Positions 10,430 through 61,735 of a DNA stretch of 64,000 nucleotides are shown here, piece after piece. Location of the stretch: NCBI RefSeq assembly GCF_902713615.1, contig NC_052149.1, positions 231,162,986 through 231,226,985 on the forward strand, in the 5' to 3' direction. Source of the DNA: Scyliorhinus canicula. Taxonomy: Eukaryota. The notes under the pieces were generated by a model that saw only the letters and a program-made list of their open reading frames with translations, had not been told where the DNA came from and searched no databases. Position numbers and translations under genes: made by a program. Position 1 is the first letter of the stretch. Every line of letters starts with the position of its first letter.

Positions 10430-12330
10430 GCTTAAGAACAAAGAAAAGTACAGCACAGGAACAGGCCCTTCGGCCCTCCAAGCCTGCGCCGACCATGCTG
10501 CCCGTCTAAACTAAAATCTTCTACACTTCCTGGGTCCGTATCCCTCTATTCCCATCCTATTCATGTATTTGTCAAGATGCCCCTTAAACGTCACTATCGT
10601 CCCTGCTTCCACCACCTCCTCCGGCAGCGGGTTCCAGGCACCCACTACCCTCTGTGTAAAAACTTGCCTCGTACATCTACTCTAAACCTTGCCCCTCGCT
10701 CCTTAAACCTATGCCCCCTAGTAATTGACCCCTCGACCCTGGGAAAAAGTCTCTGACTATCCACTCTGTCTATGTCCCTCGAAATTTTGTAGACCTCTAT
10801 CAGGTCGCCCCTCAACCTATCTATCACTGTCTTAAAGACACTCTGTGATTTGGATTCATCCTTTAGTCTGAGATTGTGTCCTCTGTTTCTAGTTTTTCCC
10901 ACAAGTGGAAAAATCCTCTCCACGTCCACTCTATCCAGGCCACGCAGTATCCTGTAGGTTTCAATAAAATATCCCTCATCCGAGTACAGACTCAGAGTCC
11001 TCAACCGTTCCTCACAGACGCAGGCACAGGGGCTGGTTTAGCTCACCAGGCTAAATCGCTGGCTTTTAAAGCAGACCAAGCAGGCCAGCAGCACGGTTCG
11101 ATTCCCGTACCAGCCTCCCCGGACAGGCGCCGGAATGTGGCGACTAGGGGCTTTTGACAGTAACTTCATTGAAGCCTACTTGTGACAATAAGCGATTTTC
11201 ATTTTCATTTCACCTAACCTGCACACCTTTGGACTGTGGGAGGAAACTGGAGCACCCGGAGGAAAGCCACGCAGACACGGGGAGAACGTGCAAACTCCGC
11301 ACAGGCGGTCACCCGAGGGACAATAAGGGATTTTCATTCCATTTTTCATTTCATATAAGTTCTTCATTCCAGGGATCATTCTTGTGAACCTCCTCTAGAC
11401 CCTTTCCAAGGCTAGCACATCCTTCCTTATATATGGGGCCAGAAATATCTCACAATACTCCAAATGAGGTCTGACCAGAGCCTTATATAGCTTCAGAGGT
11501 ATATTCCTGGTCTTGTATTCTAGCCCTCTCGACATGAATGCTAACATTGCATTTGCCTTCCTAACTGCCGACTGAACCTGCACGTTAACCTTAAGAGAAT
11601 CATGAACAAGAACTCCCAAGTCCCTTTGTGCTTCTGATTTCCTAAGCATCTTCCCATTTAGAAAATAGTCTAAGCCTCCATTTCTCCTTCCAAAGTGCAT
11701 AACCTCACACTTTTTTACATTGTATTCCATTTGCCACTTCTTTGCCCACTCTCCTAGCCTGTCCAAGTCCTTCTGCAGCCCGCCTGCTTCCTCAATACTA
11801 CCTACCCCTCTACAGATCTGTGTATCATTTGCAAATTTAGCAATAGTGCCTTCAGTTCCTTCCTGCAGATCATTAATATATATTTTTAAAAGTCGTGGTC
11901 CCAGCACCGACCCCTGAGGAACACCACTAGTCACCGGCTGCCATCCTGAAAAAGGTTCCTTTATCCCCACTCTCTGCCTTCTGCCAGTCAGCCAATCCTC
12001 TATCCATGCCAGGATCTTACCCTTAACACCGTGAGCTCTTAATTATTTAACAGCCTCCTATGCGGCACCTTGTCAAAGGCCTTCTGGAAATCTAAATAAA
12101 TCACGTCCACTGGTTCTCCTTTGTTTAACTTCCTTGTTACTTCTTCAAAGAACTCTAACAGATTTGTCAGACATGACATCCCTTTGACAAAGCCGGGCTG
12201 ACTCAATCCTATTTTATCATACACTTCCAAGTACTCCTCAATCTCATCTTAATAATGGACTCTAATATCTTACCAATGATCAAAGTCAGGTTAACCGGCC
12301 TATAATTTCCCATCTTCTGCCTCTCTCCCT
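10430..12330 (-). mobile_element. CR1 LINE fragments (3' end and RT region)
   Basis: ORF 11395..11970 SGVPQGSVLGP...KFANDT...WQMEYNV.KCEVMHFG; ORF 12039..12230 CLTNLLEFFEEVT...DFQKAFDKVPH. Confidence 0.92.
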
Positions 12331-13587
12331 TCTCCTGATCTCCTTCTGCACCCTGGAGTTCCGGTGAGCAGAACCCCTCAGTGCAGGGAATGGGATGAAG
12401 TCAGTGGGACATTCCCCGCTGAGGCCCCAGATTGCAATAGTGTCCCGTTCGATGGCATGGTCCTTCTCAGGAAACACCCGGCTCAACACACTCGACACGG
12501 GACTCTGTTGCAATTCGGTTAGATCGCGCCCAGGATATATTGGCCTTGGGAGGAATGCAGTGTAGATTCAACAAAATGTCACTGGGCCTCCGGTGTCACC
12601 CTGCCCCAGAGGGCAGTGGAGGTTCAGTCGTTTAGTCTGCTCAAGACTAAAATTCATGGATTTGTGCCCATTAAAAACATCAAGGATCAAAGGATGGAGG
12701 GATAGGGCAAGAAAATGGTGTCAAAATAGATCATGTCAGCCATGATCTCGTGGGACCTTGCTGACCTTGACCATTCATGTGAGATCATTGAAGTGGGCTC
12801 AAATGGCTGAATGGCCTCTTCCTGTTCTTATTTCTTGTGAAGGGTTAGTTTATGAGGAGGGATTATATAAACTGAAATGTCCTGGGATATAGAAGATTAA
12901 GGAGTAAATTGCTTTAGGATTTTGAAAGGAATTGATCTCCTTTAATATAGGGCAAGCCATCACCTGGTTACAGAGCCGCTAAAAGTTCAATGATCTCACA
13001 TGAATGGTCAAGGTCAGCGAGTGCATCTTTAAATACCATAACCTGCCCAATTATACCCCACCAATCTCTAACATTGTTTAATGCACCACACCCTCATCAC
13101 TCACCCATCAGTGATCCTTTTCAATAGGTTCTCATGACTAGCTCTCAGCAAGCCTCGCACCCACATCTCGCAGCGTAAACATATTTCTAGCTATTCAGCC
13201 ATGGCAGGCACATCGCCCGGGCACATTGCAATACTCAATACTTTTCAATATGTTGAATGGCGGAGCAGGCTCGAAGGGCCAAATGGCCTGCTCCTGCTCC
13301 TATTATCTATGTTTCCAAGTTTCTATGACACATTTCCCTCTCACTCGCAGGACAAGTTGTCCCACCACGGGATGAAGCAGCAGAAATTGCCTGAGACAGG
13401 CACCCCTGCACTTTCTGCATCCTTCAGAGTGGACAATGGTGCAGATTATCAGTGTGGCAGTGACTGAGGCCATTGAAACCGGTCCAGCCGAGAACCTCCA
13501 TGATAGCCGTCTGTTCCTGCTGAATGGACCTCCTCGATCCCACTTCACCCGCATCCTGCAATATGACGCGAAGAATAAGTTTCAGAT

Positions 13588-14236
13588 TGTTGCTCGTTGT
13601 GCTCTCTCCTTAATTGGCTCTGTTTATGGCGGTTAATATGGTCGCCGTCCTTAATTCTAAATATGTTTGCTCAAGCGTCGACAGGTATCTTTCGATACCG
13701 CCACAAGGTTCAAAACCAAATACTGATCAAAGACTCGATACACCAGTTAGTAAGTTCAAAATCAATACTCATTTATTTACACAGTCAATTATACTCATGC
13801 ACAAACTCTACTAACTAAACTATCACTACTACTAAAAGCCTATACTTAGCTTCGGGCGCCCACTCAGTCAGAGGAACAATGGCCGTTGTCCGGTTCTGAG
13901 GCTGCTGGAGTTGAGCTGGTACGGAATAGTAGCTAGCAGCGTCTGTCTCGTAGCGTGTGTTGACTTTGGACTTACATGTCTGGTGGAGCTGCGAGGCAGG
14001 TCTCTCCTCGCTGAGAGCCAAGGCCAAGAGAGTGATTCTCTCTTGGGGGCTTCTTTTTATACCCCAAAGGGGGCTTCGCGCTCTTTTGGGCGGGCCTTGA
14101 ACTTGGCCCCAATTAATTGGACCATATCCTAATCATCGGTATTGATTTTCTCCAATAAAGGGGTGTCCAATTTTCCCTTCATTCTCTGCAAATGTCAAGT
14201 TTGTAATCGGGACCGTGGCCACCCCAGGTGGCTACA
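13588..14236 (-). repeat. 3' LTR with internal deletion
   Basis: Begins TGTAGCCACC. TATA-like GGGTATAAAAAG near 14052-14064 and AATAAA at 13772-13777. Homologous by eye to the solo LTR at 561-1829. Preceded by purine tract AAGGAGTGAG (PPT, 14237-14246). Confidence 0.85.
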
Positions 14237-14678
14237 CTCACTCCTTGTGATCCTCAACGCGAAGCGTGAAGGATCACATTACCGCGTCGTCTTCGTTCTC
14301 TGACCAAGCGGGGCACCTATGACTAGGCTCTATACTGTCCTATACTATGCAACACAATTTTACCTAAATCATTTTAAATACATACATCATCAAAAAATAC
14401 TCTACGAGACGCTATGGCATTAAGGCATGCATTGCAAAAGTGTTTTTAAACTGGAACCTCTAACTATTCTCAATAAACTATTCTCATTTAAACAATCCAA
14501 AAATATTTCAACATCTTAAACTGTACAAAATAGCAGCAAACAAATTTCCCTGGCTTGGCAGTCAAGCACAGAGATCGCACTTCTTTATTGAGACAAACAA
14601 AACACACACAAAAAAATGGATGCTCTTTAATCCATGTCAAGGGGTTCGGGGGTCTGGTGAAATCCGAACATAGGGGCC

Positions 14679-14984
14679 CTAAATCTGTATACCCAGGGTG
14701 CGAGAGCGGTAGGCTCTCCTTCGCCATTTTCTCATCCTAATGGTCTGCAGGACACTGCAAAGTATCGCCAGTGCTAAGTGTGCTTCTACAACATATGAAA
14801 GTGAATACCAAGTGATAAACTTATCACACCAGGTCGGGGTACTGTTAACTGTTGCTGGGCTCTGTGTACTGCAGGGGAGGGAATCATTGATGGACTGTGG
14901 GGTAGGGGTGAGTGGGTTAGCGTCTGCACGCAACTGAAGGGATCCCGCTAAGATCCATGTGACAAAAATGGAGGTCGTCTTCAT
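14679..14984 (-). CDS. Proviral accessory ORF: 101-aa predicted single-pass membrane protein
   Basis: Open frame MKTTSIFVTWILAGSLQLRA (signal-like), S/T/P-rich segment with 2 Cys and NDS/NST sequons, hydrophobic WYSLSYVVEAHLALAILCSVLQTI, polybasic RMRKWRRRAYRSR. Lies between integrase and the PPT. Confidence 0.65.
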   Translation of the reverse strand: MKTTSIFVTWILAGSLQLRADANPLTPTPQSINDSLPCSTQSPATVNSTPTWCDKFITWYSLSYVVEAHLALAILCSVLQTIRMRKWRRRAYRSRTLGIQI

Positions 14985-15828
14985 CTTTCTTCTCTTCTTC
15001 TTCTCTTCTCTTCTTGTAGTTCTTGAGTTTCCGGAGTCCTGTGAACACAAGCATAATACCTGTTATTATCTTGCTTAAGATCTCGTGTGTTTGTCTGTTG
15101 TCCTTTATGGCCAATTACCCTTTATAATTGGTCACCATCTGTGACTCCCTCATTTTTCTTTTAAACCGAATTGCTGGACAAGATATCTGAGAAAATACTG
15201 ACACAGTGCGAGCCGTCTCGCAGCCTGTGCGATTTACCATCCCAATGTTTGAGGATGTAAATAGTATGTGGAAGGGCAACCTAAGGGTCGCCGTGAAACA
15301 AACAAAAAAAAATTTTGAACTAAAAGAGCCAAATTGAGGTGCGTATGGGCCGCGGCGGGTAAGAAATGGATGGAATCCCCGGGTAGGACGGTGATCAGTG
15401 CCGCGTGTGCTCTACCCGAGCATAGCTGACCGGGGGGGTCCTCAGGCAGGGCGGGGATTAGTGCCGTTTCTCCACTGCCTGAGCAACCGGCAAGAACGGG
15501 TACGAATGTGGTCGTCGCGGGGGTTGCAATAATGCCTCTTCTCCCTCGAATCAGAAGAGCAGTTATGAAATGGTGTCTGGGCAAACTTTCAACTTCTCAG
15601 AGGTTTCTGCTGATAAACTAGTCGGTTGTCTGTGGACAAACTTGTTCCATTAACTGCCTGGGGGCATTAAAGGAGTGGTGGCCTGGGGCCATGAAAATGT
15701 GCAAATTCTGAACGATCAACACTTAACAGTTACACAAACAAACAAACATGCAACAAACTTGGTGTAGGTTCCATCAGAAAGGACACCGTATCTCTCTATC
15801 GGTTACTTTTTACCATCATCTGGACACC

Positions 15829-18800
15829 TCAGTTTTCGGTCGGGAACAGAGTCGCAAAGGGATTCGTTTGGTGGGAGTTAGACTCAATGTCATCATCTTC
15901 TCCTGGCTGCCATACTCTAGACTGGAGTAACTTTGCCAAAGCTGCGTGGTGCGAATTGGGGTCCATCTCATCATTCCAAATGAGCCTGAACGAATTGTCT
16001 CGGTGCCAGAATCGTGTGTCAAGTTTGGAACGGCTGGGGTTCAATCCGTAATCGTCGGGTGGTGGGTCTGGGTCAGGGGCTTTCATGTATGCGATCTCAA
16101 AGGGATCACTAGAATCGTTGGGAGTGGGGCCTGGTGCAGGGGGATAGTCATAACATGGCGTGCTGTGGCTGTCGTCAGTCCTGTCGCAGTCACTGTCGAT
16201 GTCGCTGCTGGTTGGGGGCGGGGAGAGGCGGAGTCGTGTGTCTGGGGGCGGAGTTGAAGTCGAGTCTGAGGACGGGCTGGACTGGCTGGGGGAGGATAGG
16301 AATGTGTCATCTGTGGGTGGGGCGTGCTTGTCTGCTGCTGCGAGCAGGATGTGGTGTGTGTGGTTATTCTGCGAGCCATAAGCCTTGAGCTAGTTTATGT
16401 GAAACCACGCAGACTTTCCATTGGGATATGTGATCTTGTGTACCGAGGGGCTTACTTTGTCCGAAATGGAGTGCGGTCCTGGGAATTTTGGGGAAAGGAA
16501 TGAACTGGGGTTGTATAGAGAAAGCATCACTTGCTGCCCTACTGCAAACTCAGTGGCGTGCACTCTCTTACCGAAACAAGCCTTGCTCTGTTTCTTCTGT
16601 GTTCCCAGTCTGACAGATGCTGCGAGTTGGGTGCCTTACTGTTCTCTATTAGCTGCTGTACAGCGTTTTCATGTGTGAGGGCTGTGACTGTGGGGCTGGC
16701 CAAATCCAATCCTAATAAATACTCTGTCCCTTTCATGGGGCGTCTGGTCATGGGAGTGTGGGGGGTGTATCCTGTGGACATGGATACCGTGTTCCTTAAA
16801 AACATTAACGCAAATGGGAGAACTGAATCCCAGGTGCTGTTATTCTGCTGCACCATTTTCCTGAGGGTGGCTTTCAATGTCCTGTTCATTCGTTCGACGA
16901 TACCACTTGACTGGGGGTGGTACGCGATATGGAATTTTTGTGTTATGCCGAAAATTGTGAGGACATTTTTCATAACTCGTCCTGTAAAATGGGAGCCTTG
17001 ATCGGACTCTATATTGCGGGGAGTCCCCACCTTGTAAAGATGTAGAGGGTTAGGATTTTTGCGGTTGTCTTTGCTGTATTTGTTCGCGATGGAAAAGCTT
17101 CCACCCATTTTGTGAAGGTGTCGATGCCCACCAACGCATACTTATATCCATTTCTGCAAGGGGGTAGGGGTCCTATGAAATCTATCTGGAGATTATTCCA
17201 TGGGCCATTAACGGGGCGGTAATGACTAAGTTGAGCCTTTTTTGCATATCTGTTCGGATTGTTCTGGGTACAGATCCAGCAATTCTCTATGTAGTGGGTG
17301 ACATCGGCTTTTAAATTAGGCCAGCAGCAGAGCGGTCTGAGGTGGGCTAAAGTTGGCTCAATTCCTTGGTGTCCATTATTGTCATGGAACTGACAAATGA
17401 TCTGGTTCCTGTCCTGCCTTGGAACTATGTAAATGCCGTATTTCAGGATCACACCGTCGTGTGTGGTTATAGAATTCTTAAACTTGTCATAAGGGGCTGG
17501 GAAGGTTCCCTTTAAAACTGCCCTGAGTTTCTCATCCTGTTTCTGTGCCTGTGCTAAACCCTGGATGTTGGTTTGTGAGACCTGAACTGTGTGTACAGGG
17601 GTGCTTTCGGGGGGGAGGGGTCCAAAAATAACCATGCCTAGGGCGTCTGCTTTAACATTACCTGGGGGGGGGGGGGGGGGGGGGGGGGAACGGTGATGAC
17701 TGCGAACTTTAATAATTCCGGATCTTTGTCTGCTCTAAAATTTGGCGGAGTAATGGGACTGATGGTAGGGGTTTTCCGTCTGCGGAAACAAATCCTCTTG
17801 ATTCCCACAGGGGTAGGAATTCCGTCAGACTTACGCAGACATACAAGTTGTCTGAATAGATGTCTCTGGGGTCGGGAACGAGTCGGGGTGGTCTACTATA
17901 TAAGCTATCGCTGCCAGTTCTGCTGCCTGCAAGCCTCAGTGTCCTGGCAACTTTAGGGAAATCTCTTCTCGGGTGCGTCCCTGCGCGTCCTCTACATAAA
18001 TTCCGCAACCTGTTATTCTTTCTCCATCCAAAACCGTGGAGGAGCCATCTACATAAATCTTCAGGGGTGCGCATGGGTCTGTGGGCTGGGGTCTCTGAGG
18101 TGTACTACCTATTTTCTTGGGAGGTGTCTTCGGAATAAATGGGTCTATGTTGTGTTTTATGACGACGATCTCACATTCATGAGGGGTGCCTGGATACTGT
18201 AAATTATCGGCAAGGAAAGTGTGGGTCTTTGTTTTTTTAACTGTGATGTCCCGTCCCTGAAAAGAAGGGTCCAACAGGCTGCTCAGATTTGGCTGACTGT
18301 GCCATCTTTAAGTCATCCGTCTAACAATAACTGTGTTGGGGTGTGTTCTGTGAGGATGGTGATGGGGTTGAGTCCTGTTATGTATGCAAAGTACTGTACT
18401 GCCCAAAAAACTGCGAGCAGGTGCCTTTCACAGGCAGAAAATCCTTGCTCGACAGGGTCTAACACCCGTGAGGCAGTATGCCACGGGTCGTAACTGGTCA
18501 TGGCGTTCCTGAAGAGCACGGCCGAAAGGGTTTTGTCAGTGCTTGCTACATCGATAGCGAACGGGGATAGGGGGTCTGGGGCCTGTAGTGCGGGGGCTGT
18601 GCTGAGTGCTCTTCTTAAAGCATCCACGGCATCCGTATGCTGTGGAAGCCATTCCCAAGGTGCCTGCTTCTTGTGAAGTTCAGATAGGAGCGCTGCTTTC
18701 ATGGCGAAACTGTCAATGTGGTTTCGGCAGCAGCCAACCAGTCCTAAAAATGGCCGGAGGGCTGAGACATTGTGGGGAAGGGGCAATTTGACAATCGAGT

Positions 18801-20021
18801 CCATTCTCTTTTGCTCGATCTCGTGTTCACCCTGTGTGATAACTGTACCCAAGTATATCACTTTTTCTTCCAAAATCTGGGCCTTTTTGGGATTTACCTT
18901 ACAACCAATTTCTTTCAGGAGTCCCAGGAGTTCTGCGAGAAGCGAAATGTGCTCTGCTTTTGTGTCTGTCTGTAGTAGCAGGTCGTCTACATACTGGACC
19001 AGACACTCAGGGCGAGAAAATTTAGCTAATCCATTTGCCAGCTGTTGGTGAAAAATGGAGGGGGAGTTGTGGAAGCTTTGTGGAAGGCACGTCCTTTAAA
19101 AGTGAAGTCGAATTTATACTGGCACGCTTTAGCCAATGCAATGGACCAAAAGCCATTGCTAATGTCCAAAACTAAAAATAATTTTGACTGGAGTCCCTGT
19201 TTGAGCATGGTCTCGTGACTCGTGGCTACGGTGGGGGCTGATGCTGTGGTTACTTTGTTCAGTTCCCAGTAATCAATGTTCAGTCGCCATGATCCATCTG
19301 GTTTCCTGACGGGCCAAATTGGTGCATTGTTTGTGGAGGCTATTGATCTCAGTACGCCTTCGTCCAGTAAACTATCTATTACTTTCGAGATTTCTCCCTC
19401 TGCTTCCTGGGGAAATCCGTACTGCTTCTGGGGTCTGGGGTCAGGACCTGTGATATGCACAGAGGCAGCCATTCTGCCACAGTCATGCTGTGCAAATGCT
19501 GCTTTGTGTTCTTGCAGGACTGCCCTACCCTGTCTGTCTGAACTAATGGCTCGAGGGTCGAACCAGAACTCTCCGACTGAGCTGATTCTATTCTCGTACT
19601 CTCCAACTGTGAGCGTGGTGGGGGCTCGTGCTGCCTTTGCCATTCTCCAAACACACTTGGTAACTGGATCAAAGGGAAGGTTGTGGGAGCTCATGAAATC
19701 GATCCCTAAGATATGTTCTGCTATGTGGGGCAGATCAACTAAAACTATGAGGTGCTTGGTGGTAATGTTGCCTATCTGTATCGCTATGGGGGCTGTGATG
19801 TGTGCCTGTCGTAAGTGACTTGTAAAGGCGCTGAGTGTAACGGTGTCTGTTGTGGGCCACGTGTCTCTCTGAAACATCGTGGAGTAGTTGAGTGTGGTGC
19901 GGGACCCTCCTGTGTCCCAAAGAAATTCTACGGGCTGGCCCCGGACTTTGCCTGCTACGACCGGTCGACCGGACTTATCCCAAAGGGTATCGCAGACCCA
20001 AGTTGGGGAGCCCGAACACCA
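15829..20021 (-). pseudogene. pol: pro-pol with frameshifts: protease, RT, tether, RNase H, integrase
   Basis: Protease FLWDTGGS (DTG 19908-19916) and ILGIDF; RT NAPIWPVRKPDGSWRL and YVDD (18982-18993); degenerate RNase H-like tether; RNase H KIYVDGSS/QAAELAAI/IYSD; integrase H-H-C-C, LQIDFIGPLP, ESDQG, GIVERMNRTLK. Confidence 0.93.
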
Positions 20022-20041: not shown

Positions 20042-20189
20042 CTCCATGGTCTGAACGGGCGATAACGCTATGAATAGGTTCCATGGTCTGAACGGGCGAT
20101 AATGCTATGAATAGGTTCCATGGTCTGAACGGGCGATAATGCTATGAATAGGTTCCATGGTCTGAACGGGCGATAACGCTATGAATAGG
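20042..20189. repeat. 37-bp tandem repeat x4 at the end of gag
   Basis: Unit ttccatggtctgaacgggcgataatgctatgaatagg; ccatgg recurs at 20044, 20081, 20118 and 20155. Confidence 0.95.
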
Positions 20190-20546
20190 CTTTGCCCTAT
20201 TCCTATTTAGGGTGCCAATCTTTTGGACTCTTTGCTGCCTCTGTGGCGCGTTGCACTCTCGTGCAAAGTGTCCTAACTGTCCACAGTTGAAACACTCCTG
20301 TGATTTGGGCTGGGGTGGGCTGTTCCTGCCCTCATTTACCCATGCGGGGTTCTGGTGCGCTTTTACTGGATGCATGTCTGCATCTGCCTGCTCTTCCTCG
20401 GGTTTGATAAATGCGGTTTTGTTATGTACGGATTGCTCCCTAGCGTGGGATAACCTTTTCAAAACCCACTTTTCATTGTGGGCCTGGTCTGAGGGGTCGT
20501 AATTTGCGCCAGCTCTCTGTCCTGCCTCTGTTGCATGAGAGACCAG

Positions 20547-21284
20547 GGGCGGCATTCTCCCCTACCCGGCGGGGTGGGGGGTCCCAGCGTAGCGGAGTGG
20601 CGCCGACCATTCAGGCGTCGGGCCTCCCCAAAGGTGCGGAATTCTCCGCACCTTTAGGGGCCAAGCCCTCACATTGAGGGGCTAGGCCCGCGCCGGAGCG
20701 GTTGGCACCACGCCGACTGGCGCCAAAACCGGCACCAGCGGCCTTTCAGGTCCGCCGCCCGACGCCGGGGCTGGCCGAAAGGCCTTCGCCGGTTCGCGCA
20801 TGCGCCGGTGGTGACGTCGGTGGCAGCTGCCGCTGACGTCACCACTGGCGCATGCGTGCTGGGGGATTCTCTTCTGCCTCCGCCATGGTGGAGGCCGTGG
20901 CGGCGGCGGAAGAGAAAGAGTGCCCTCACGGTACTGGCCCGCTCACCAATCGGTGGGCCCCAATCGCGGGTCTGGCCACCGTGGGGGCACCCCCCGGGGT
21001 CCGATCGCCCCGCGCCACCCAGGACCCCGGGGGCCCGCTCGCGCTGCCAATCCCGCCGCCACCAGAGGTGGTTCAAACCTCGGCGGCGGGAGAGGCCTCT
21101 CAGTGGCAGGACTTCGGCCCATCGTGGGACGGAGAATCACCGCAGGGGCCTCGCCGCTCGGTGTGGCGCGTTTCCCACCACCGCCAATTCCCGAGTGGCA
21201 GAGAATTTCTGCCACGGAGGGGGCGGGATTTTCGGCGGTCCCAGGCGATTCTCCGACCCTGCTGGGGGTCGGAGAATTTCGCCC
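20547..21284. mobile_element. PIF/Harbinger-type MITE inserted in gag
   Basis: TIRs GGGCGGCATTCTCC / GGAGAATTTCGCCC and 3-bp TSD CAG (CWG) at 20544-20546 and 21285-21287. Similar copy at ~61125-61730. Confidence 0.8.
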
Positions 21285-22250
21285 CAGGACTCGAGTCCAT
21301 TTGGCCATGTTATCTGCAGACAAATGGAAGTGGGCTAATTCTCCAAAAACTGCTGTGAAGTGTATCCACAAGCATCCAGCAAACGCTGTGGGGTGCTCTG
21401 TTTTCTTTTGCCTACATTTGTTTAGGTCTTCTACCGGGTCTCCTCTGTTGTAGCCAATCGCATCAAGGATCGCTGTGTGCATCTCTTGGAGTGTGCCTCC
21501 TCCTACATTCTGTGGCTAGGGAAGGGCTGCCATGACTGAAGGGTCGAGACTTCAAACTGTGAGCTTTATCTGCTCTCTCTCGTCCAGGCCATACATGGTG
21601 GCCTGCTGTTTTACTTTAGCAAAAAACTAGTGGGGGTCTGATGTGGGAAGGAACGGTGTAATTTTTCCACACGCATCCCGTAATTGGGTCACGGTTAAGG
21701 GGGTTGTATAGTGGAAATCTGTGTCTCCTTCTGCTGCGGCTCTGCGGTATGTGGTTACCGGGTTCATGGGGGTGTGTTCTATCTGTTCAGTTGGGGGTTG
21801 GGGTGCTCTCCTTTTCTGGGGCTTCTCCTGCGTACATGCTCCATGTACATATCTATGGGCTGTTTTGTTCAATTCCTGCCAATCGGGGCCATTCTCCTGA
21901 TCTAGTTGGGGTCCGAATGTGGTCTGAAATCCATTTTGAACTGAAAGTAGGGATTGCAATTATGCAAGTTGCTTCCGGCACTTTGCGTGGTCTACGGAGC
22001 TCTGCCTTTGTTCCGTTGTGGAAGTATGGAGTGCTGGTAGGGCTGCTTTCAAGTCATTGCACTGTTTCTGCAATGTTTCTACCTGCCGCTCGGTTTCCTA
22101 TCTTACCAAGACCACACGTTGATAAGGTAGGCCTTATCGGACTGCGTCTGGAAGCTACTTAAGTGTGGGAGACAAGACTGGTGTGCCCTCTTGGCATCAT
22201 CCACCTCTCTGTCCTTTGCTGCTGGCTTCTCTCTCAAATCCACCAGCACT

Positions 22251-22477
22251 GGGGTGTCTGCTTTGGTATCGTTTGCTTAAGTGTTTCTCTTTTGTCCCCG
22301 GAGATAGCTCATTAGTATGCTAATGGCTTTGCAGTATCGGTCTTGTCTGGGAGCTGCAAACTTCAATCCACAGACAAACCTTGCACCTGCTTGCTTTCTC
22401 AGCATTGTCCAATTTTCCCTTCATTCTCTGCAAGTGTCCATTTTGTAATCGGGATGTGGCCACCCCAAGTGGCTACA
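22251..22477 (-). repeat. Truncated 5' LTR (U3 start only; R/U5, PBS and leader deleted)
   Basis: Shares its first ~73 bp with the 3' LTR and resembles the solo LTR over ~1600-1829, then runs directly into gag-like sequence. Confidence 0.8.
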
Positions 22478-23691
22478 AGATGCTGCCGCCCAACCTGAGG
22501 TAGTGTCATCTGAAGCCAGACCCTCAAGGGCACTGGCTGTTTGAGGATATCCTGGACAAATGGCAACAGTAGTAAACCTTTTAACCTTTTGTACTTGCTC
22601 CATCATTCAATGGCATCTTTCCCACTCTAACTCCATAGTGTTTGATTATGTGAGCCTGTTTACAATTGATGCTCACTGTGCTTGTTTAGTTCAGCCTGGG
22701 TGTGGACTCGGAGAAAAGTAAACCAAACCGTATAAAGAGCCGGAAGCATGGAGACATTTCAAAGCACCGTGAAAAAAAAATCTGTTGTACACATAATAAC
22801 TAGTGTGTTCTGTGCTTAAGTCTGAGATGTAAAATATTCAACGACCACTGGAGTAATGCTGTTTTAGAGGATTCGGACAGACAAACAGGCACTAAGAGAA
22901 TACACAAGAGTGCTTAGTAGAGTTTTGCAAATATCATTGGACGTGTTGCTGGATAAAGTTGCTCGGGAATAATTTCATTCACTGGGATTTTCCAATCCCG
23001 CCCACCATGGGACCGGGGATTGCCGTCTTCCAAACTCCTTTTTCTGGTCTGTCAAATTTTGTTTCCCGACCACGACTATTCCTGCCATGGTCAGACAATC
23101 TGAACCTTTGTGCTGTCCGTTATGTCGGGATCTCGTTCCAGGAGGATGCTTTGATTTTCTAAGGTGCTGAGGGATGGAAAGGTGGGGAATTATGGTACAA
23201 GGATGACACAGGGATATTTTCAGAAGAATAGGAATCTGGTCAGCTCCTCACGGAAGCCACAGTTTCTTGGATGTCCCCTTCCTCCCTCCGCTCCCTCCTC
23301 CTTCAGAGTACAGCTTCCCCTCTCTGCTGCCTCGGCTCCATCTCCCCGTCATGCTGCAGTTCATCAGTGTGTGTAACCAGAGCCACCCTCCCCTCACCCA
23401 CCCTGTCGAAGGAGGCCTTCAAAATTCCTTTGGGAATGTCCAGGAACTTCCTTCTGACTCCAATAGCTCGGGTGAGCTCCCCCACAGAATGTCCACTCAC
23501 TTTAGTCAGAAGATCCTCTCCTCAACATCCCATGATGCCAATGTTTGAAGAATGTTATTGGTTATCCCTGGTGTGGCTGAAGGCAGGTTGAGCTGCGAGT
23601 GTTTGAGAGGGATGAATGTTGGCCCAGGACACGGGGGAACTCCCCTTGCTCTTCACAAGATAGTGGCTGTGGGACCTTCTACCCATTTGAG

Positions 23692-24287: not shown

Positions 24288-24959
24288 GAGTGCCCCCCTT
24301 TTAACGCTTCACCCAAAGAGGCATTGTGATTCAACACAATTAGTATTATTAAAGCTTCACCGTCATGCTTCAATTTGAATGGCTGGTGAAGTAGTTCCAA
24401 CTTCTCCGGAGTGAATAGATCAGTCCTGCCAATTGCTCCCTAATCTGGGAATTATCATGGGGAACTGTGGCTGCGGAAGCTCTGTGAATTATCTTGTTCC
24501 ACCATTGCATCACACAGGATGTCCCTTGGACCCATTCCCATTATTTCATCCAGTGACTACATCAGATTCCAGAGAGAGGGAATTCTGTGGAGCTAACTTC
24601 CTCTGCGCAGGGCCACCGAGATAATTGGGCCAGCCAGCCAAAGAGAAGACATTCGAGGGGTGACCAAACCAGGCGTGGGATCTTCCGGCCGTACCCACGG
24701 ACCCTTGGCTGGTCTGTTACATTTTACGCCCCCGGCCACGACGATTCCCTCCAAGGGCAAGATCAGAAAGCCTCGGCCTTGGCCAGAGGGCTTCAGGAAG
24801 CATCTGAGAGGAGGAGCAGGAAGTGGTGAGCTGGCGAGGTTTACCACAGAGTGGCAGCGTTCAGAGCCTCAGCAGCTGAGAGCGCGGTGAAGTGATTAAA
24901 ATCAGCGATGCGCAAGGCCCCAGGACTGGAGGAGCACAGAGAACCCGGAGATTTGGGGT

Positions 24960-26450
24960 TGGGAGATGGGGAGGGCTGTGTGCGGGGTGGTGGGGGGGGG
25001 GGGGGGGGTGGTGTGTGTGTGGGGGGTTGGTGGAGGGGTGTGTGGGGTGGTGGGGGAGGGGTGTGTGCAGGGGGGTGGGGGGAGGGGTGTGTGGGGTGGT
25101 GCGGGGGCGTTCGAGTTGGTGGGGAGGGGTTTGTGGGGTGGTGGGGGAGGGGTGTGTGGGGTGGTGGAGAACGGGTGTCTGCGGGGTCTGGGGGAGGGGT
25201 GTGTAGGGTGGTGGGGGGTGGGGGCGAGTTGGTGGGGGAGGGGTGTGTGGGACGGGTGTGTGCGGGGTAGTGGGGGGCGGGTGTGTGCGGGTTGGTGGGG
25301 GAGGGGTGTGTGCAGGGGGGTGGGGGTAGGGGTGTGTGGGGTGGTGGGGGGGGGGTGCGAGTTGGTGGGGGACGGGTGTGTGCCGAGTAGTGGGGGAGGG
25401 GTGTGCGGGGGATGGGCGAAGGGTGTTCAGGGTGTGGGGAGGGGTGGGTGCGGGGGGGGAGGGGTGTGTGCGGCATTGCGGGGGGGGAGGCGAGGTGGTG
25501 CGCAGTGTGGGGCAGGGGTGTGTGCGGGGGGAGGCAAGGTGGTGCGCGGTGTGGGGGAGGTTGTGTGCGGGGGGGGAGGTGAGGTGGTGCGTGGTGTGGG
25601 GGAGGGGTGTGTGCGGGGGGAGGCGAGGTGGTGCGCGGTGTGGGGGAGGGGTGTGTGCGGGGGGAGGCAAGGTGGTGCGCGGTGTGGGGGAGGGGTGTGT
25701 GCGGGGGGAGGCGAGGTGGTGCGCGGTGTGGGGGAGGGGTGTGTGCGGGGGAGGCGAGGTGGTGCGCGGTGTGGGGGAGGGGTGTGTGCGGGGGGAGGCG
25801 AGGTGGTGCGCGGTGTGGGGGAGGGGTGTGTGCGGGGGTGTGTGTGCGGGGGGAGGCGAGGTGATGCGCGGTGTGGGGGGGGGGGTGCGGGGGATGGGTG
25901 AAGGGTGTTCAGGGTGTGGGGAGGGGTGGGTGCGGGGGGGGAGGGGTGTGTGTGGGGGGAGGCGAGGTGGTGCGCGGTGTGGGGGAGGGGTGTGTGCGGG
26001 GGGAGGCGAGGTGATGCGCGGTGTGGGGGGGGGTGCGGGGGATGGGTGAAGGGTGTTCAGGGTGTGGGGAGGGGTGGGTGCGGGGGGGGAGGGGTGTGTG
26101 CGGGGGGAGGCGAGGTGGTGCGCGGTGTGGGGGAGGGGTGTGTGCGGGGGTGCGGGGGAGGTGAGGTGGTGCGCGATGTGGGGGAGGGGTGTGTGCGGCG
26201 GGGAGGCGAGGTGGTGCGCGGTGTGGGGGAGGGGTGTGTGCGGGGGGTGCAGGGGGGAGGTGAGGTGGTGCGCGATGTGGGAGAGGGGTGTGTGCGGGGG
26301 TGCAGGAGGGAGGTGAGGTGGTGCGCGGTGTGGGAGAGGGGTGTGTGCGGGGGGAGGCGAGGTGGTGCGCGGTGTGGGGGAGGGGTGTGTGCGGGGGGTG
26401 CAGGGGGGAGGTGAGGTGGTGCGCGGTGTGGGGAGGGGTGGGTGGCAGTG
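24960..26450 (+). repeat. G-rich minisatellite (~40-45-bp unit ggggggaggcgaggtggtgcgcggtgtgggggaggggtgtgtgc)
   Basis: Many diverged tandem copies with extreme G/C strand skew. Confidence 0.92.
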
Positions 26451-27919
26451 ATATTGAATGGGGACTTGTGCAAGTCAGGACGTGGGTAACTGAAGTCGAC
26501 GGAGTTTGGGATGTGGGAGTCTGGGAATGGGAGCATTGGAATTGTGGAATCTGAAGGCATCAATGACGATGGAGGAGGATTGCAACAGAAGATGGGTCAA
26601 TTAGTCCAAAAAGGTGGATCACAAGCAGCTCCTCGAGAACAATGAAACATGGGCAACAAGTTCCCAACTTGCCAGTGACACTCATCCCAGCAATAAATGA
26701 AACATAGGGGCAAGAGGGGCAAAGACACACAAGTACCCTCGTCTACGTGGGTCTTGGCTCCACAACCCAAAGATGTGCAGGGTAGATGGATTGGCCATGC
26801 TAAATTGCCCCTTAATTGGAAAAAAAGGACACAGTCATGTAATTTTCCTCTGACCTTTATTCCTTTGTTACTCCTTTATAACAAATCCAAATCCTTTCTC
26901 TTTTACAAATGACATTAATCAGAAGCCATTTTCTCATCTCAGAAGCTCTCTGAACACCCACCACCCCCTGAGCAAGGAATCACCACTGTACCACAGTTAG
27001 CACATTCCACCAAGTCCGCAATTCACTGCCCAGAGCCCCTCCTCCCTCCCTCGAGCGACATTAATGGTCATTCCTATAACAGCCTGCCCTCTCAGCTAAT
27101 GTCGCTTCTTCTTAAACTTATCCACCAACATCGACACAACTACACGCAGGAAAAACTTTATTTAAGCAAATCTTAATTATAATGTGCAAATCTTAAAACA
27201 ACACAAGTTTTTAAATGCAAAGGCCATAGAAACTCCAGCAGGTGATAGGTCACCCCTCTGACAGAAACCAAACTAAAATGAATGAATAGTCCTTGAAAGA
27301 AATGTCCCACTTTTGGGAAAGGTACTGGTTGTAAAGCCGGCACTGCCAAAAATATTAATAGATTAGCCGCATCGTTTGCAATGTCGGCGGCAGATCCGTC
27401 AAAAATTACCTCATGCTCATAACGCGGACGCACTTCAGAAACCTTTTCCACAGCAATGCGCTCCTATTCAAACTCAAAGTTACCCAGCAAAAATAGGCAA
27501 CAATTTCTAGCGCTTAAAGCCGCAATGCACATCACACACTGACAGAAGAGTTGGCGAAACTGTTTGCCAAACTGCTCATTTCACCGGGGACTTCCTGTCA
27601 TTGAGGCCAAGATGCTCATGGGAGCCATGTCTGACCTGCAAAATTGTGGCAGATTGGCACTGGGTCAATCAGTAGAAAGTGCAGCCAATTGTCCAGCTCA
27701 TGGCTCAACCTCTCATCATTTTGATTGAAAAACTAGCAAGGTAGCATCGTCATATGGAGCCCGTCGCCGTATCAGATTATTTGACAGATGAACACTGCTG
27801 CCGGTTGCAAACACCTGTGAGAAACTGACTGGTTTGGATTTGGCTTGTGTGTCTCTGTGAGAGGATCAAAGGGAATGAACAGAGAAGACTTTTCATCCTT
27901 GATTGGGCCAAAGTGGGTT

Positions 27920-54859: not shown

Positions 54860-55537
54860 AGTGTGTGGGCTTTGTGTGTGTGGGTGCATGCGTGTCTATA
54901 TGTGCCCGCATGTGCTTTGTGTGTGGCTGTTTTGTATTTATATGTGTGTGCATATGTGTGTATTCATCGGTGTGTGTGTGTACACGCATACCTGTATGGA
55001 CATAGAAATATGCCCATGTGTGTGCATATACCTATTTATGTGTATACATGTCTGTGTGAGTGTTCTTGTCCCGGTGTGGGGAGAGTGTGCGCGTGGCTGT
55101 GTCCATGTGTGTGGGTCTGTGAGTGTGCGTGTGTCCATGTGCGTGGGTCTGTGAGTGTGCGTGTGTCCATGTGCGTGTATATATTAGGTGAGTGCAGCAC
55201 TGAATTCATTTGTGATGCCCTGCCTTTTGTGTTGACACTCACTGTCCTGGTCCAAAGGGAAAAATGCCCGTCTCGGAGTCAAGAGGGAGGGTGTATGCGT
55301 GAGGAAATGAAGGCAAGCCTCAGTATTCTCAGACCAATGATATCAGCCTGGCTAAACTGACTGGGACATAATTAGACAGCTCCCTTGCGACCTCTGGTGG
55401 AGGAAGTGTGTGTGTGTCAGTGTCTGTGTGTGTGTGCAAGGCTGCATATGTCTGTGTTTGTCTGTGTGCATGACTGCGTGTGTCAGAGTATGTGTGTGCG
55501 TGTGTATGTAACTGTGTGTGTCAATGTATGTGTGTGC
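54860..55537. repeat. Degenerate (TG)n-rich simple repeat
   Basis: Visible TG periodicity; ends at the gap. Confidence 0.9.
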
Positions 55538-60027: not shown

Positions 60028-61735
60028 AATGGGACCTTAGGGGGAATTTTCCACCTCCTCAGTTGCATGTTCCTCAGCAGCACGCCGTCGCTGCCAGCGG
60101 GATTATTCATTCCAGCCGCTGGCCAATAGGATATCCCATTGTAGCTACCCACCCCCCCCCCCTCCACCGGGAAACCCCTGGGGGGCAGGGGGCACTGCCG
60201 GCGGATTGGAGAATCACGCCAGCGGAGAATTCACCCCCTTGTTGATTCTTGCTTATAATTTCCTTCCCCTTTCTCTGACTGGGAATGTGCCCATCAATAT
60301 TCCTCTGGTTCTTCTGTCAAATATATGGGTCTGGATTCACCGTTTTTGAGGTTAAGTGTCATCGCCGGCGTGGCAACTGTGGTGTTTTACAATCCAAGAT
60401 TGGCGCCGAACCCTCACCGATCCTGCAACTGGTGAGGGGTTAGCAGCCGCGACGGGTAACACTCCCGGCTCCCACTATATAAACGGCTGGAGAATGGCCG
60501 GGTTCGTGGTCGCACATGTGCACGGCGATGACCTCACCTCGCCGTGAAACATGGCACCGGCCGTGCGTGGACCCGACCTGCCAAAGAGTGCCCCCCCTTG
60601 GCCACCCCCCACCAATCCCCCCGCCTAGTATCTCCCGGCTGACTGTGGCACCGCTGGACACAGTCCATGGCCATCAGGCCGGGTTCCCGACTACGCGGTC
60701 GGGAACCCGGCCCAGCATGGGCGGAGTATCAGGGCGGGGCCTTCACCGTTCCTTCGCCGTTGGCGACGTGCCAACGCCGTTCGAATGGTGTGCAGTGTGC
60801 GACGTGATGATGCCATTTCGGAGGAGGCGGAGGACAGGAAACTGGCGTCAAACCAGCACTGCCCCCGATGTGGCCGTCGGATGGGATTCTTTGCCCAATC
60901 GCTGATTACGATATCGGCATCAGGGAACGGTGAATCCCGCCCATGATCTTCATATGTCATCCATGTAATTAACTTTGCCCAACCTCTCAAACCATGAGAT
61001 CATTGGGTGACAACCAGGAGAGTGAAATCCTGCCTGATTCTAACCACGTCCCCCTATTCCCCTCCCCCACTCTCACTCCCCTCTCTCCACTCACCACTGT
61101 CCTGGCTGAACAGTCTGGGGATTAGGGCCAGGATTCTCCCCTACCCCGCAGGGCGGGGGGTCCCGGCGTAGCGGAGTGGCGGAATTCTCCGCACCTTTAG
61201 GGGCTAGGCCCGCGCCGGAGTGGTTGGCGCCACGCCGACTGGCACCAAAACCGGCGCCAACGGCCTTTGACGACCGCCGGCCGGAGTCGGGGCTGACCGA
61301 AAGGCCTTCGCCGGTTCACACATGCGACGGTGCATCAGCTGCTGCTGACGTCACCACCGGCGCATGCGCGGTGGAGGGGTTCTCTTCCGTCTCCGCCATG
61401 GTGGAGGCCGTGGCGGAGGCGGAAGAAAAAGAGTGCCCCCACGGCACAGGCCCACCCGCCGATCAGTGGGCCACAATCGTGGGCCTGGCCACCGTGGGGG
61501 CACCCCCCGGGGTCCGATCGCCCCGCGCCCCCCCCCAGGACCCCGGGGCCCCGCTCGCACCGCCAATCCCGCCGCCACCAGAGGTGGTTGAAACCACGGC
61601 GGCGGGATTGGCCTGACAGCAGCGGGACTTCAGCCCATCGCGGGCCGGAGAATCGCCACGGGGGGCTCGCCGATCGGCGCAGCGTGATTCCCGCCCCCGC
61701 CAATTCTGGCCACACCGGGGGCGGGATTTTCGTTT
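60028..61735. mobile_element. Cluster of three GC-rich Harbinger-type MITEs (~60030-60238, ~60325-60942, ~61125-61730)
   Basis: GGG(N)GGATT(C/T)TCC / GGAGAATTCACCCC type termini. The last copy closely resembles 20547-21190. Confidence 0.6.

Follow-up and report, generated by a model that had tools for sequence, protein, structure and literature searches.

The window analysed here, a stretch of 64,000 nucleotides from the catshark Scyliorhinus canicula, carries a retrovirus-like element on its minus strand between positions 13588 and 22477 and, near the 3' end of that element, a small open reading frame (ORF) that reads as a membrane protein (Table 1). A dual RNase H, a YVDD motif and a tether in pol, a CCHC knuckle in gag, long terminal repeats (LTRs) and a target-site duplication together characterise the element as retroviral. 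Little of it is intact: pol, already described as full of frameshifts in the first-pass annotation, changes frame at least five times and has an in-frame stop at 16390-16392, and of the 5' LTR only 73 nt remain before a deletion that joins it to gag and takes away the primer site, the leader and the probable splice donor. The locus is dead, with breaks in gag, pol and the 5' LTR as well as in the end of the small gene. The family is multi-copy in at least two organisms, with 814, 6442 and 15058 read contigs matched from three runs and all 30 bins covered; read-contig depth over the 3' LTR is high down to position 13640.

Table 1. Features of the element and of its small gene, in window coordinates
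Feature	Position	Strand	Details and basis
4-bp target-site duplication, 3' side	13584..13587	.	Identical 4 bases flank 13588 and 22477
3' LTR	13588..14236	-	649 bp; TG...CA ends; TATA-like at 14061; AATAAA at 13777
Polypurine-tract-like stretch	14237..14256	-	15/20 purines; adjoins LTR
Cytoplasmic tail of small gene, out of frame here	14627..14692	-	21 codons to stop; tblastn with P0029 and P0030 tails
Small membrane-protein ORF, as readable in this copy	14679..14984	-	101 aa, last ~6 residues out of frame; homologues
Conserved core, residues 52-95	14700..14831	-	Trp-Cys and aromatic membrane-proximal stretch, transmembrane segment with E67, polybasic stretch; 68% pooled pairwise identity
Short Ser/Thr/Pro-rich ectodomain part, residues 23-51	14832..14918	-	Sequon N33; 43% pooled identity
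Signal-peptide-like N-terminus, residues 1-22	14919..14984	-	Hydrophobic in 5/5, 30% identity; putative cleavage
Probable splice acceptor	15039..15041	-	CAG, 54 nt before ATG; switch points of P0033 and P0029
Gene-less interval between pol and small gene	15042..15828	-	Possible scar of a lost env
pro-pol	15829..20021	-	Protease, RT, tether, RNase H, integrase; at least 5 frame changes
Broken gag	20142..22405	-	CCHC knuckle (zf-CCHC E 8e-8); foreign repeat at about 20545-21190
5' LTR remnant	22406..22477	-	73 nt, 92% like 3' LTR; remaining LTR, primer site and leader deleted
4-bp target-site duplication, 5' side	22478..22481	.	Identical to 13584..13587

Behind the in-frame stop of pol, the integrase frame continues as a 186-codon acidic, Pro/Ser-rich extension (15829-16389, minus strand) with no Pfam match, which is lacking in the frog and coelacanth relatives P0003 and P0005. 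A 37-bp tandem repeat lies near the gag-pol junction (20043-20189), and the GC-rich foreign repeat within gag occurs a second time at 61124-61706. Outside the element, a G-rich tandem array of ~1.7 kb with a 44-bp period and extreme GC skew occupies 24840-26560. The minus strand at 11395-12400 holds what we take to be a CR1/L2-like LINE fragment, and many SINE-like repeats of 200-350 bp occur in the window, as expected of a shark genome.

Read from ATG to stop, the small ORF encodes 101 aa. Its N-terminus is hydrophobic (maximum KD11 2.05), and a single later hydrophobic segment (maximum KD19 1.77, from residue 61) is assigned as transmembrane (TM) by hydropathy only. Two Cys and two N-glycan sequons lie N-terminal to this segment and a polybasic stretch C-terminal to it. 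Hydropathy and the letters themselves agree here with the earlier description of a signal-like start, a Ser/Thr/Pro-rich ectodomain with two Cys and two sequons, one hydrophobic segment and a polybasic part. Among the 82 Met-to-stop ORFs of 80-200 aa in the window, the small ORF is the only one that combines signal-like, TM-like and polybasic parts, which is a weak control because the thresholds were set with knowledge of this ORF. The sole other frame among the 82 with signal-like and TM-like stretches, an 88-aa frame at 54888 (plus strand) without a basic cluster, is probably due to chance.

The decisive evidence that the ORF is more than a chance frame comes from homologues rather than from this screen. 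A full HMMER scan gave six matches at E<=0.001, five of which are Scyliorhinus gene models containing the small gene (E 2e-27 to 3e-5); the sixth, P0032, is an unrelated repeat protein and was dropped. The homologues, from S. canicula and S. torazame, are 47-60% identical to the ORF and are computed gene models, not proven transcripts. Two of the five, P0029 (115 aa) and P0030 (114 aa), are open from their own Met to the tail, and the others are broken or chimaeric: P0028 has another tail, P0031 has another N-terminus and a short tail, and P0033 ends before the TM segment. The models are long (204-454 aa) because the predictor joined upstream exons encoding host immunoglobulin (Ig) sequence, a host EP3 receptor or unalignable sequence; as the additional parts derive from host Ig or 7TM proteins or from upstream exons that cannot be aligned, the models were rejected as longer forms of env. 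In all four relatives covering that part, the ectodomain is collinear with this copy to within one residue. Because every relative that covers it has the same short ectodomain, the short form did not arise by a deletion at this locus alone, and the fusion of signal peptide and TM anchor by deletion, raised earlier as what would undo the interpretation, is excluded as an accident of this copy.

Two of the S. torazame models merit mention in their own right. In P0031 (XP_072365112.1), a HEPACAM2-like Ig protein model uses the segment of the endogenous retrovirus (ERV) as its TM and tail, and in P0033 (XP_072367138.1) the ERV acceptor truncates an EP3 receptor isoform behind TM6. Predicted host isoforms also use the acceptor of the small gene, which in one case provides an Ig protein with its membrane anchor, and the ERV exon in the two models represents either exonisation or an annotation artefact.

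The family protein is 114-115 aa long, and in this copy a frameshift at about 14697-14692 has removed its tail from the 101-aa ORF. Searches by tblastn with the tails of P0029 and P0030 located the tail at 14692-14633 (55% over 20 aa) in frame -1, with the body in frame -3. The displaced tail shares 11 of 20 residues with each of the two, equal to the likeness between P0029 and P0030 themselves, and its frame stays open for 21 codons until the stop at 14629-14627. Forty-five contigs of run X13 depart from the alignment at 14696, adjoining the frame break. The ORF reported as uninterrupted thus stands as an ATG-to-stop reading of 101 aa but not as the complete family protein, and the contrast drawn between an intact ORF and a frameshifted pol does not hold, since the small gene in this copy is as decayed as its pol.

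Conservation among the relatives is uneven. With the near-identical pair P0029/P0033 excluded, pooled pairwise identity is 54/183 (30%) in the signal, 110/257 (43%) in the ectodomain and 295/436 (68%) in the core from Trp52 to the basic cluster. For the difference between the core and the rest, the permutation p is about 1e-5 (90 gap-free columns, four rows), a value that has to be read with the homologues having been picked by HMMER score, which favours the conserved core, and with the alignment columns not being independent. Three Trp, Cys53, the TM residue Glu67 and the sequon residue Asn33 are kept in every row covering them (Glu67 in 5/5, and the N33 sequon at the same place in 5/5). C38 and His69 are found only in this copy and the second sequon in 2/6 rows, so that both pairs of Cys and sequons noted at first are present here, but only C53 and N33 are conserved. 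The N-terminus remains hydrophobic in 5/5 (KD11 1.6-3.1) despite the identity of 30%, and the basic cluster adjoining the TM segment has 6-8 Lys/Arg in 14 residues in 5/5 rows. An early Met-Gly, as for myristoylation, occurs in 0/6 rows, and the hydrophobic moment of the pre-TM stretch (11 residues from Trp-Cys) is low to modest at 0.19-0.40.

As neutral decay should be even, this gradient from core through ectodomain to signal points to a protein under selection. The core might also be kept by an RNA signal that overlaps it, and no structured RNA was seen there (fold z -0.3 to 1.5); in the whole interval between pol and LTR, the best z of -3.1 at 15140-15319 is weak for 25 windows with 40 shuffles each. 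Among the 40 of 733 nucleotide differences listed from the read contigs, two fall within the ORF, both at third codon positions. Conservation of the ORF among copies, part of the check named earlier, shows in the five Scyliorhinus models that contain the gene and in the pooled core identity of 68%, but only two of the five are open from Met to tail. Taken at the level of sequence, the comparison supports a genuine, family-wide membrane-protein gene of a shark retrovirus-like element.

Entry into the small gene is probably by splicing. P0033 tracks the EP3 receptor up to the point where another isoform enters its next part and then continues as ERV sequence. In P0029 the switch from its own upstream part falls at the same residue, which aligns with position 15038, behind a CAG. 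The two models thus share a probable splice acceptor upstream of the ATG. With 9/14 pyrimidines, this site missed the scan cut-off of 10, which seven other sites passed, so that the case for it is made by the gene models. RNA run X22 contributed 378 matching reads, with a depth over the ORF of 6.6-9.1 on one strand and 0.3-1.9 on the other, and none over 15896-16440; oligo-dT 3' bias may explain the missing pol reads equally well. Only 26 of the 378 reads are at least 95% alike and 69% continue into sequence unlike the window, and the reads therefore come from other copies. No splice joint occurs among the 15 of 34 read-contig joints listed, and a search across sequencing runs listed no RNA data set with a match. 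Over the non-coding stretch 15332-15425, depth peaks in each of the four runs, with 58 RNA reads that have about 20 start points; the stretch has an unremarkable fold z and may be a conserved cis element.

As described in the first-pass annotation, about 1.6 kb follow the integrase stop (15829) up to the LTR start (14236) without an env-sized frame: the three minus-strand frames carry 21, 25 and 28 stops per 530 codons, with no open stretch longer than 127 codons. An Env SU/TM precursor of at least 400 aa with furin site, fusion peptide and heptads was not found in the frames of the element or in the Pfam searches. The env Pfam families gave only noise against the six rows (Baculo_F, E 0.21 in 1/6), and no furin site, CX6CC motif or heptad was seen in the small protein. 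Each of the listed read-contig joints skips part of this copy, and all have low depth; the longest listed pieces are shorter than 450 nt, and the 24 listed of 1439 loose contig ends show no dominant insertion point. Of the 15 joints listed, three that come from three runs have their ends at 15622-15624, and read-contig depth falls at 15520-15613. The length-variable spot at 15483-15624 lies directly behind acceptor-like sites at 15683 and 15658, and the cluster of joints is possibly the scar of a lost gene.

In the RT frame, the element matches Pols of frogs and coelacanth (46-50%). An RT tree, computed without snakehead retrovirus (SnRV), groups it with frog and coelacanth ERV Pols (11/27 rows, support 95/93), apart from gamma/epsilon-like and Gypsy rows. 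Compared by eye in the supplement alignment of PMC7947760, its RT motifs match those of the SnRV row but not those of the lokiretrovirus rows, and on this comparison the element appears snakehead-retrovirus-like, falling near the SnRV clade. Its nearest known counterparts would be that clade ('clade Huo', Xu et al. 2018) and the elephant-shark CmiERV lineage I. A lokiretrovirus was suspected at first because the Pol matches were named 'NYNRIN-like'; this identity was rejected on the differing RT motifs in the same supplement and on the lack of a Fusion_gly match in Pfam, and S. torazame stands among the genomes screened for lokiretroviruses without a positive mark in the accessible part of PMC7947760. 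XtERV-S was likewise rejected, as it has YIDD and an ERV-L-like pol (PMC8278194, in part). In one relative, the Pol of Pyxicephalus adspersus (P0004), the gene model extends past the integrase end, and its residues ~1190-1331 hold a stretch resembling a signal peptide together with a weakly matched Ig domain (Ig_3, E 0.012). This part may be a host exon, or else a second case in the clade of a surface-protein gene that follows pol.

SnRV itself carries an env, with a tail of 136 residues, and its sub-genomic RNAs serve ORFs of 52, 94, 76 and 205 codons, according to the accessible text of PMC12193657. The element shares with it the presence of a small and probably spliced ORF; it differs in that env is absent from this copy, and the literature searched, the 1996 sequence paper apart, gives no account of a small TM gene with a signal peptide in SnRV. 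Among related elements, an SnRV-like elephant-shark ERV carries env (PMC4422223, in part), and a frog transcriptome is reported to contain an SnRV-like element that lacks env (PMC4131045, in part). The catshark consensus ERV-Spuma.0-Sca, from the genus of the small-gene homologues, is 9220 nt long with 1.5 kb from pol end to 3' LTR; its LTR measures 866 nt, against 649 here, and it has a 442-codon frame called env by position, in which its authors detected no env domain (available text of PMC10699275). Short motifs of our element had no match in the available ERV-Spuma.0-Sca material, and that ERV is probably another family.

Searches with the small protein itself returned little. Pfam gave sub-threshold matches only (TMEM156 at E 0.09-0.22, Adeno_GP19K at E 0.014 in 1/6 rows), and the ORF had no match among PDB sequences at E<=10. 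An AlphaFold model with two long helices has a pLDDT of 60 and a pTM of 0.25. With such a model, the Foldseek comparison against viral proteins suggested earlier was uninformative, none of the 29 matches listed reaching E<=0.001. A homodimer prediction scored 0.01, and feature look-alikes in the ESM Atlas stayed under the bar of 0.9 (best 0.82 and 0.89). A word-index protein search gave 0/5 candidates for the ORF alone and 3/3983 for alignment A1, all three being homologues already known. No related loci were found in viral contigs (RT frame, ORF and P0002 as queries) or metagenome contigs (ORF and P0008).

ERVs of vertebrates without env are assumed to copy within one cell, and a selected surface protein in the place of env demands an explanation. 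The alternatives are an accessory gene, inherited from a complex fish retrovirus, that interferes with shark immunity, and a cell-to-cell route independent of env, hitherto shown only in flies. Of the fusogen, viroporin and immune-modulating accessory protein put forward earlier, the last fits the anatomy best. Our tentative reading, somewhat short of an even chance, is that the locus holds a decayed copy of the accessory gene of a catshark SnRV-like ERV, encoding a spliced type I glycoprotein that acts on a host membrane partner. A spliced subgenomic RNA would enter at the acceptor 54 nt before the ATG, and after cleavage of the signal peptide the product would be a type I glycoprotein that exposes about 35-40 residues outside and bears one N-glycan. 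Its transport to the cell surface would be directed by the polybasic stretch, a membrane-proximal basic cluster being a general Golgi-export signal (PMC3952855, in part). The lone conserved outside Cys suggests a bond between chains, and the conserved Glu in the TM segment suggests a partner within the membrane, presumably a host protein. An immune or restriction protein would thereby be re-routed or jammed, so that cells making the element would be tolerated, in the manner of Vpu, papillomavirus E5 or a signalling-adaptor decoy.

A different role at the cell surface would be that of an env substitute, in which the small protein drives transfer of capsids from cell to cell and from soma to germ line, in the way of reovirus FAST proteins and insect sORF2. 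We regard this as unlikely, and equally unlikely its wider form, in which a vertebrate retrovirus lineage swapped env for a 115-aa signal-bearing glycoprotein that carries capsids into the catshark germ line, as the vertebrate counterpart of the insect sORF2 route with a different design (type I, glycosylated, not myristoylated). The gene does occupy the place of env, with a splice acceptor as env has, its size, ~35-40 outside residues, single TM segment and 6-8 basic residues in 14 give the outline of sORF2 and FAST, the aromatic stretch before the TM segment is conserved, and an element confined to one cell would gain little from a surface protein. Some insect sORF2 genes also lie downstream of pol, in 7/22 lepidopteran consensus sequences according to the accessible part of 10.1101/2025.03.14.642691. 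Against it stand the low to modest hydrophobic moment, the lack of a Foldseek match among viral models, and a FAST design without signal peptide or glycosylation (PMC3952855, in part) set against a signal-like start and a sequon in 5/5 rows. The place of env and its possible acceptor would also be explained if an old internal deletion had fused the env signal peptide to the membrane-proximal region, TM and tail, the product being kept for Gag assembly at membranes or for a block to superinfection. Signal, aromatic stretch, TM segment and Tyr-bearing tail are what such a deletion would leave, and SnRV and its elephant-shark relative carry env. However, the Baculo_F trace is the sole env-type Pfam signal, the tail of about 33 residues is far shorter than that of SnRV Env, and between pol and the acceptor lie 790 nt without a gene and other acceptor-like sites nearer pol, from which env may have been a separate upstream gene. 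We consider an ancient deletion decidedly unlikely, and one peculiar to this locus is excluded by the collinear ectodomains.

That the frame is a neutral passenger, copied along by amplifying elements with no selected protein, has in its favour that this copy and three of the five relatives are broken and that gene predictors select open copies from a family as large as this one. The uneven conservation argues against it, with Trp, Cys, Glu and sequon kept, hydrophobicity preserved despite an identity of 30% and the tails of three copies still 55% alike, and we hold it to be improbable. A viroporin, whose TM oligomers would form an ion channel aiding particle release, appears to us highly improbable. 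Small size, polar residues and Glu in the TM segment and a basic tail are compatible with one, and influenza M2 is a feature look-alike at 0.75; this value is far under the bar, glycophorin, TMEM213, TMEM154 and UL132 score equal or higher, and known viroporins mostly have no cleaved signal peptide.

Returning to the accessory glycoprotein that we tentatively favour, we found the small ORF undescribed in the literature searched, which also included PMC4977317, PMC6001957, PMC10435555, PMC12440569 and 10.1101/2024.03.25.586437, each in part; most subscription papers, the original SnRV sequence paper, Repbase, Dfam and bioRxiv supplements were outside its scope. Earlier screens would miss such a family, because it has no Pfam model, no myristoylation motif and fewer than 400 codons: the sORF2 screen demanded a myristoylation motif (10.1101/2025.03.14.642691, in part), and a chondrichthyan env screen demanded frames of 400 codons (10.64898/2026.05.06.723177, in part). 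FAST and sORF2 proteins are about 100 aa long, with one TM segment, a short outside part and a juxtamembrane basic cluster, in elements without env, and the small gene in this env-less copy matches this outline: against a range of about 60-200 aa with one TM segment and ~30 aa outside, the precursor has 114-115 aa and ~35-40 outside if cleaved after residue 22, and the polybasic cluster is present in 5/5 rows. The first-pass comparison with FAST breaks down on the other characters. FAST proteins have no cleaved signal peptide but a reverse signal-anchor (PMC3952855, in part), most are myristoylated and they are not glycosylated, whereas the small protein has a hydrophobic, putatively cleaved N-terminus in 5/5 rows, a conserved N-glycan site, a TM Glu and no myristoylation glycine, with no match in sequence or fold. 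The virus groups differ as well, sORF2 belonging to Metaviridae, FAST to reovirus and the small gene to a vertebrate retrovirus. Complex retroviruses are known to carry small accessory genes, and env-less elements small TM genes; what we describe is a hitherto undescribed protein family in a vertebrate ERV. The Pfam families of adaptors, Vpu and E5 had no match to the small protein rows, and no ITAM was seen in the tails of the relatives. HIV Vpu, papillomavirus E5, SFFV gp55, the adaptors DAP10, DAP12 and FcR-gamma and herpesvirus gN are small type I membrane proteins with a charged TM residue, and with this group the small protein shares, in architecture only, a short outside part with Cys, an acidic or polar TM residue, a basic juxtamembrane stretch and a Tyr in the tail.
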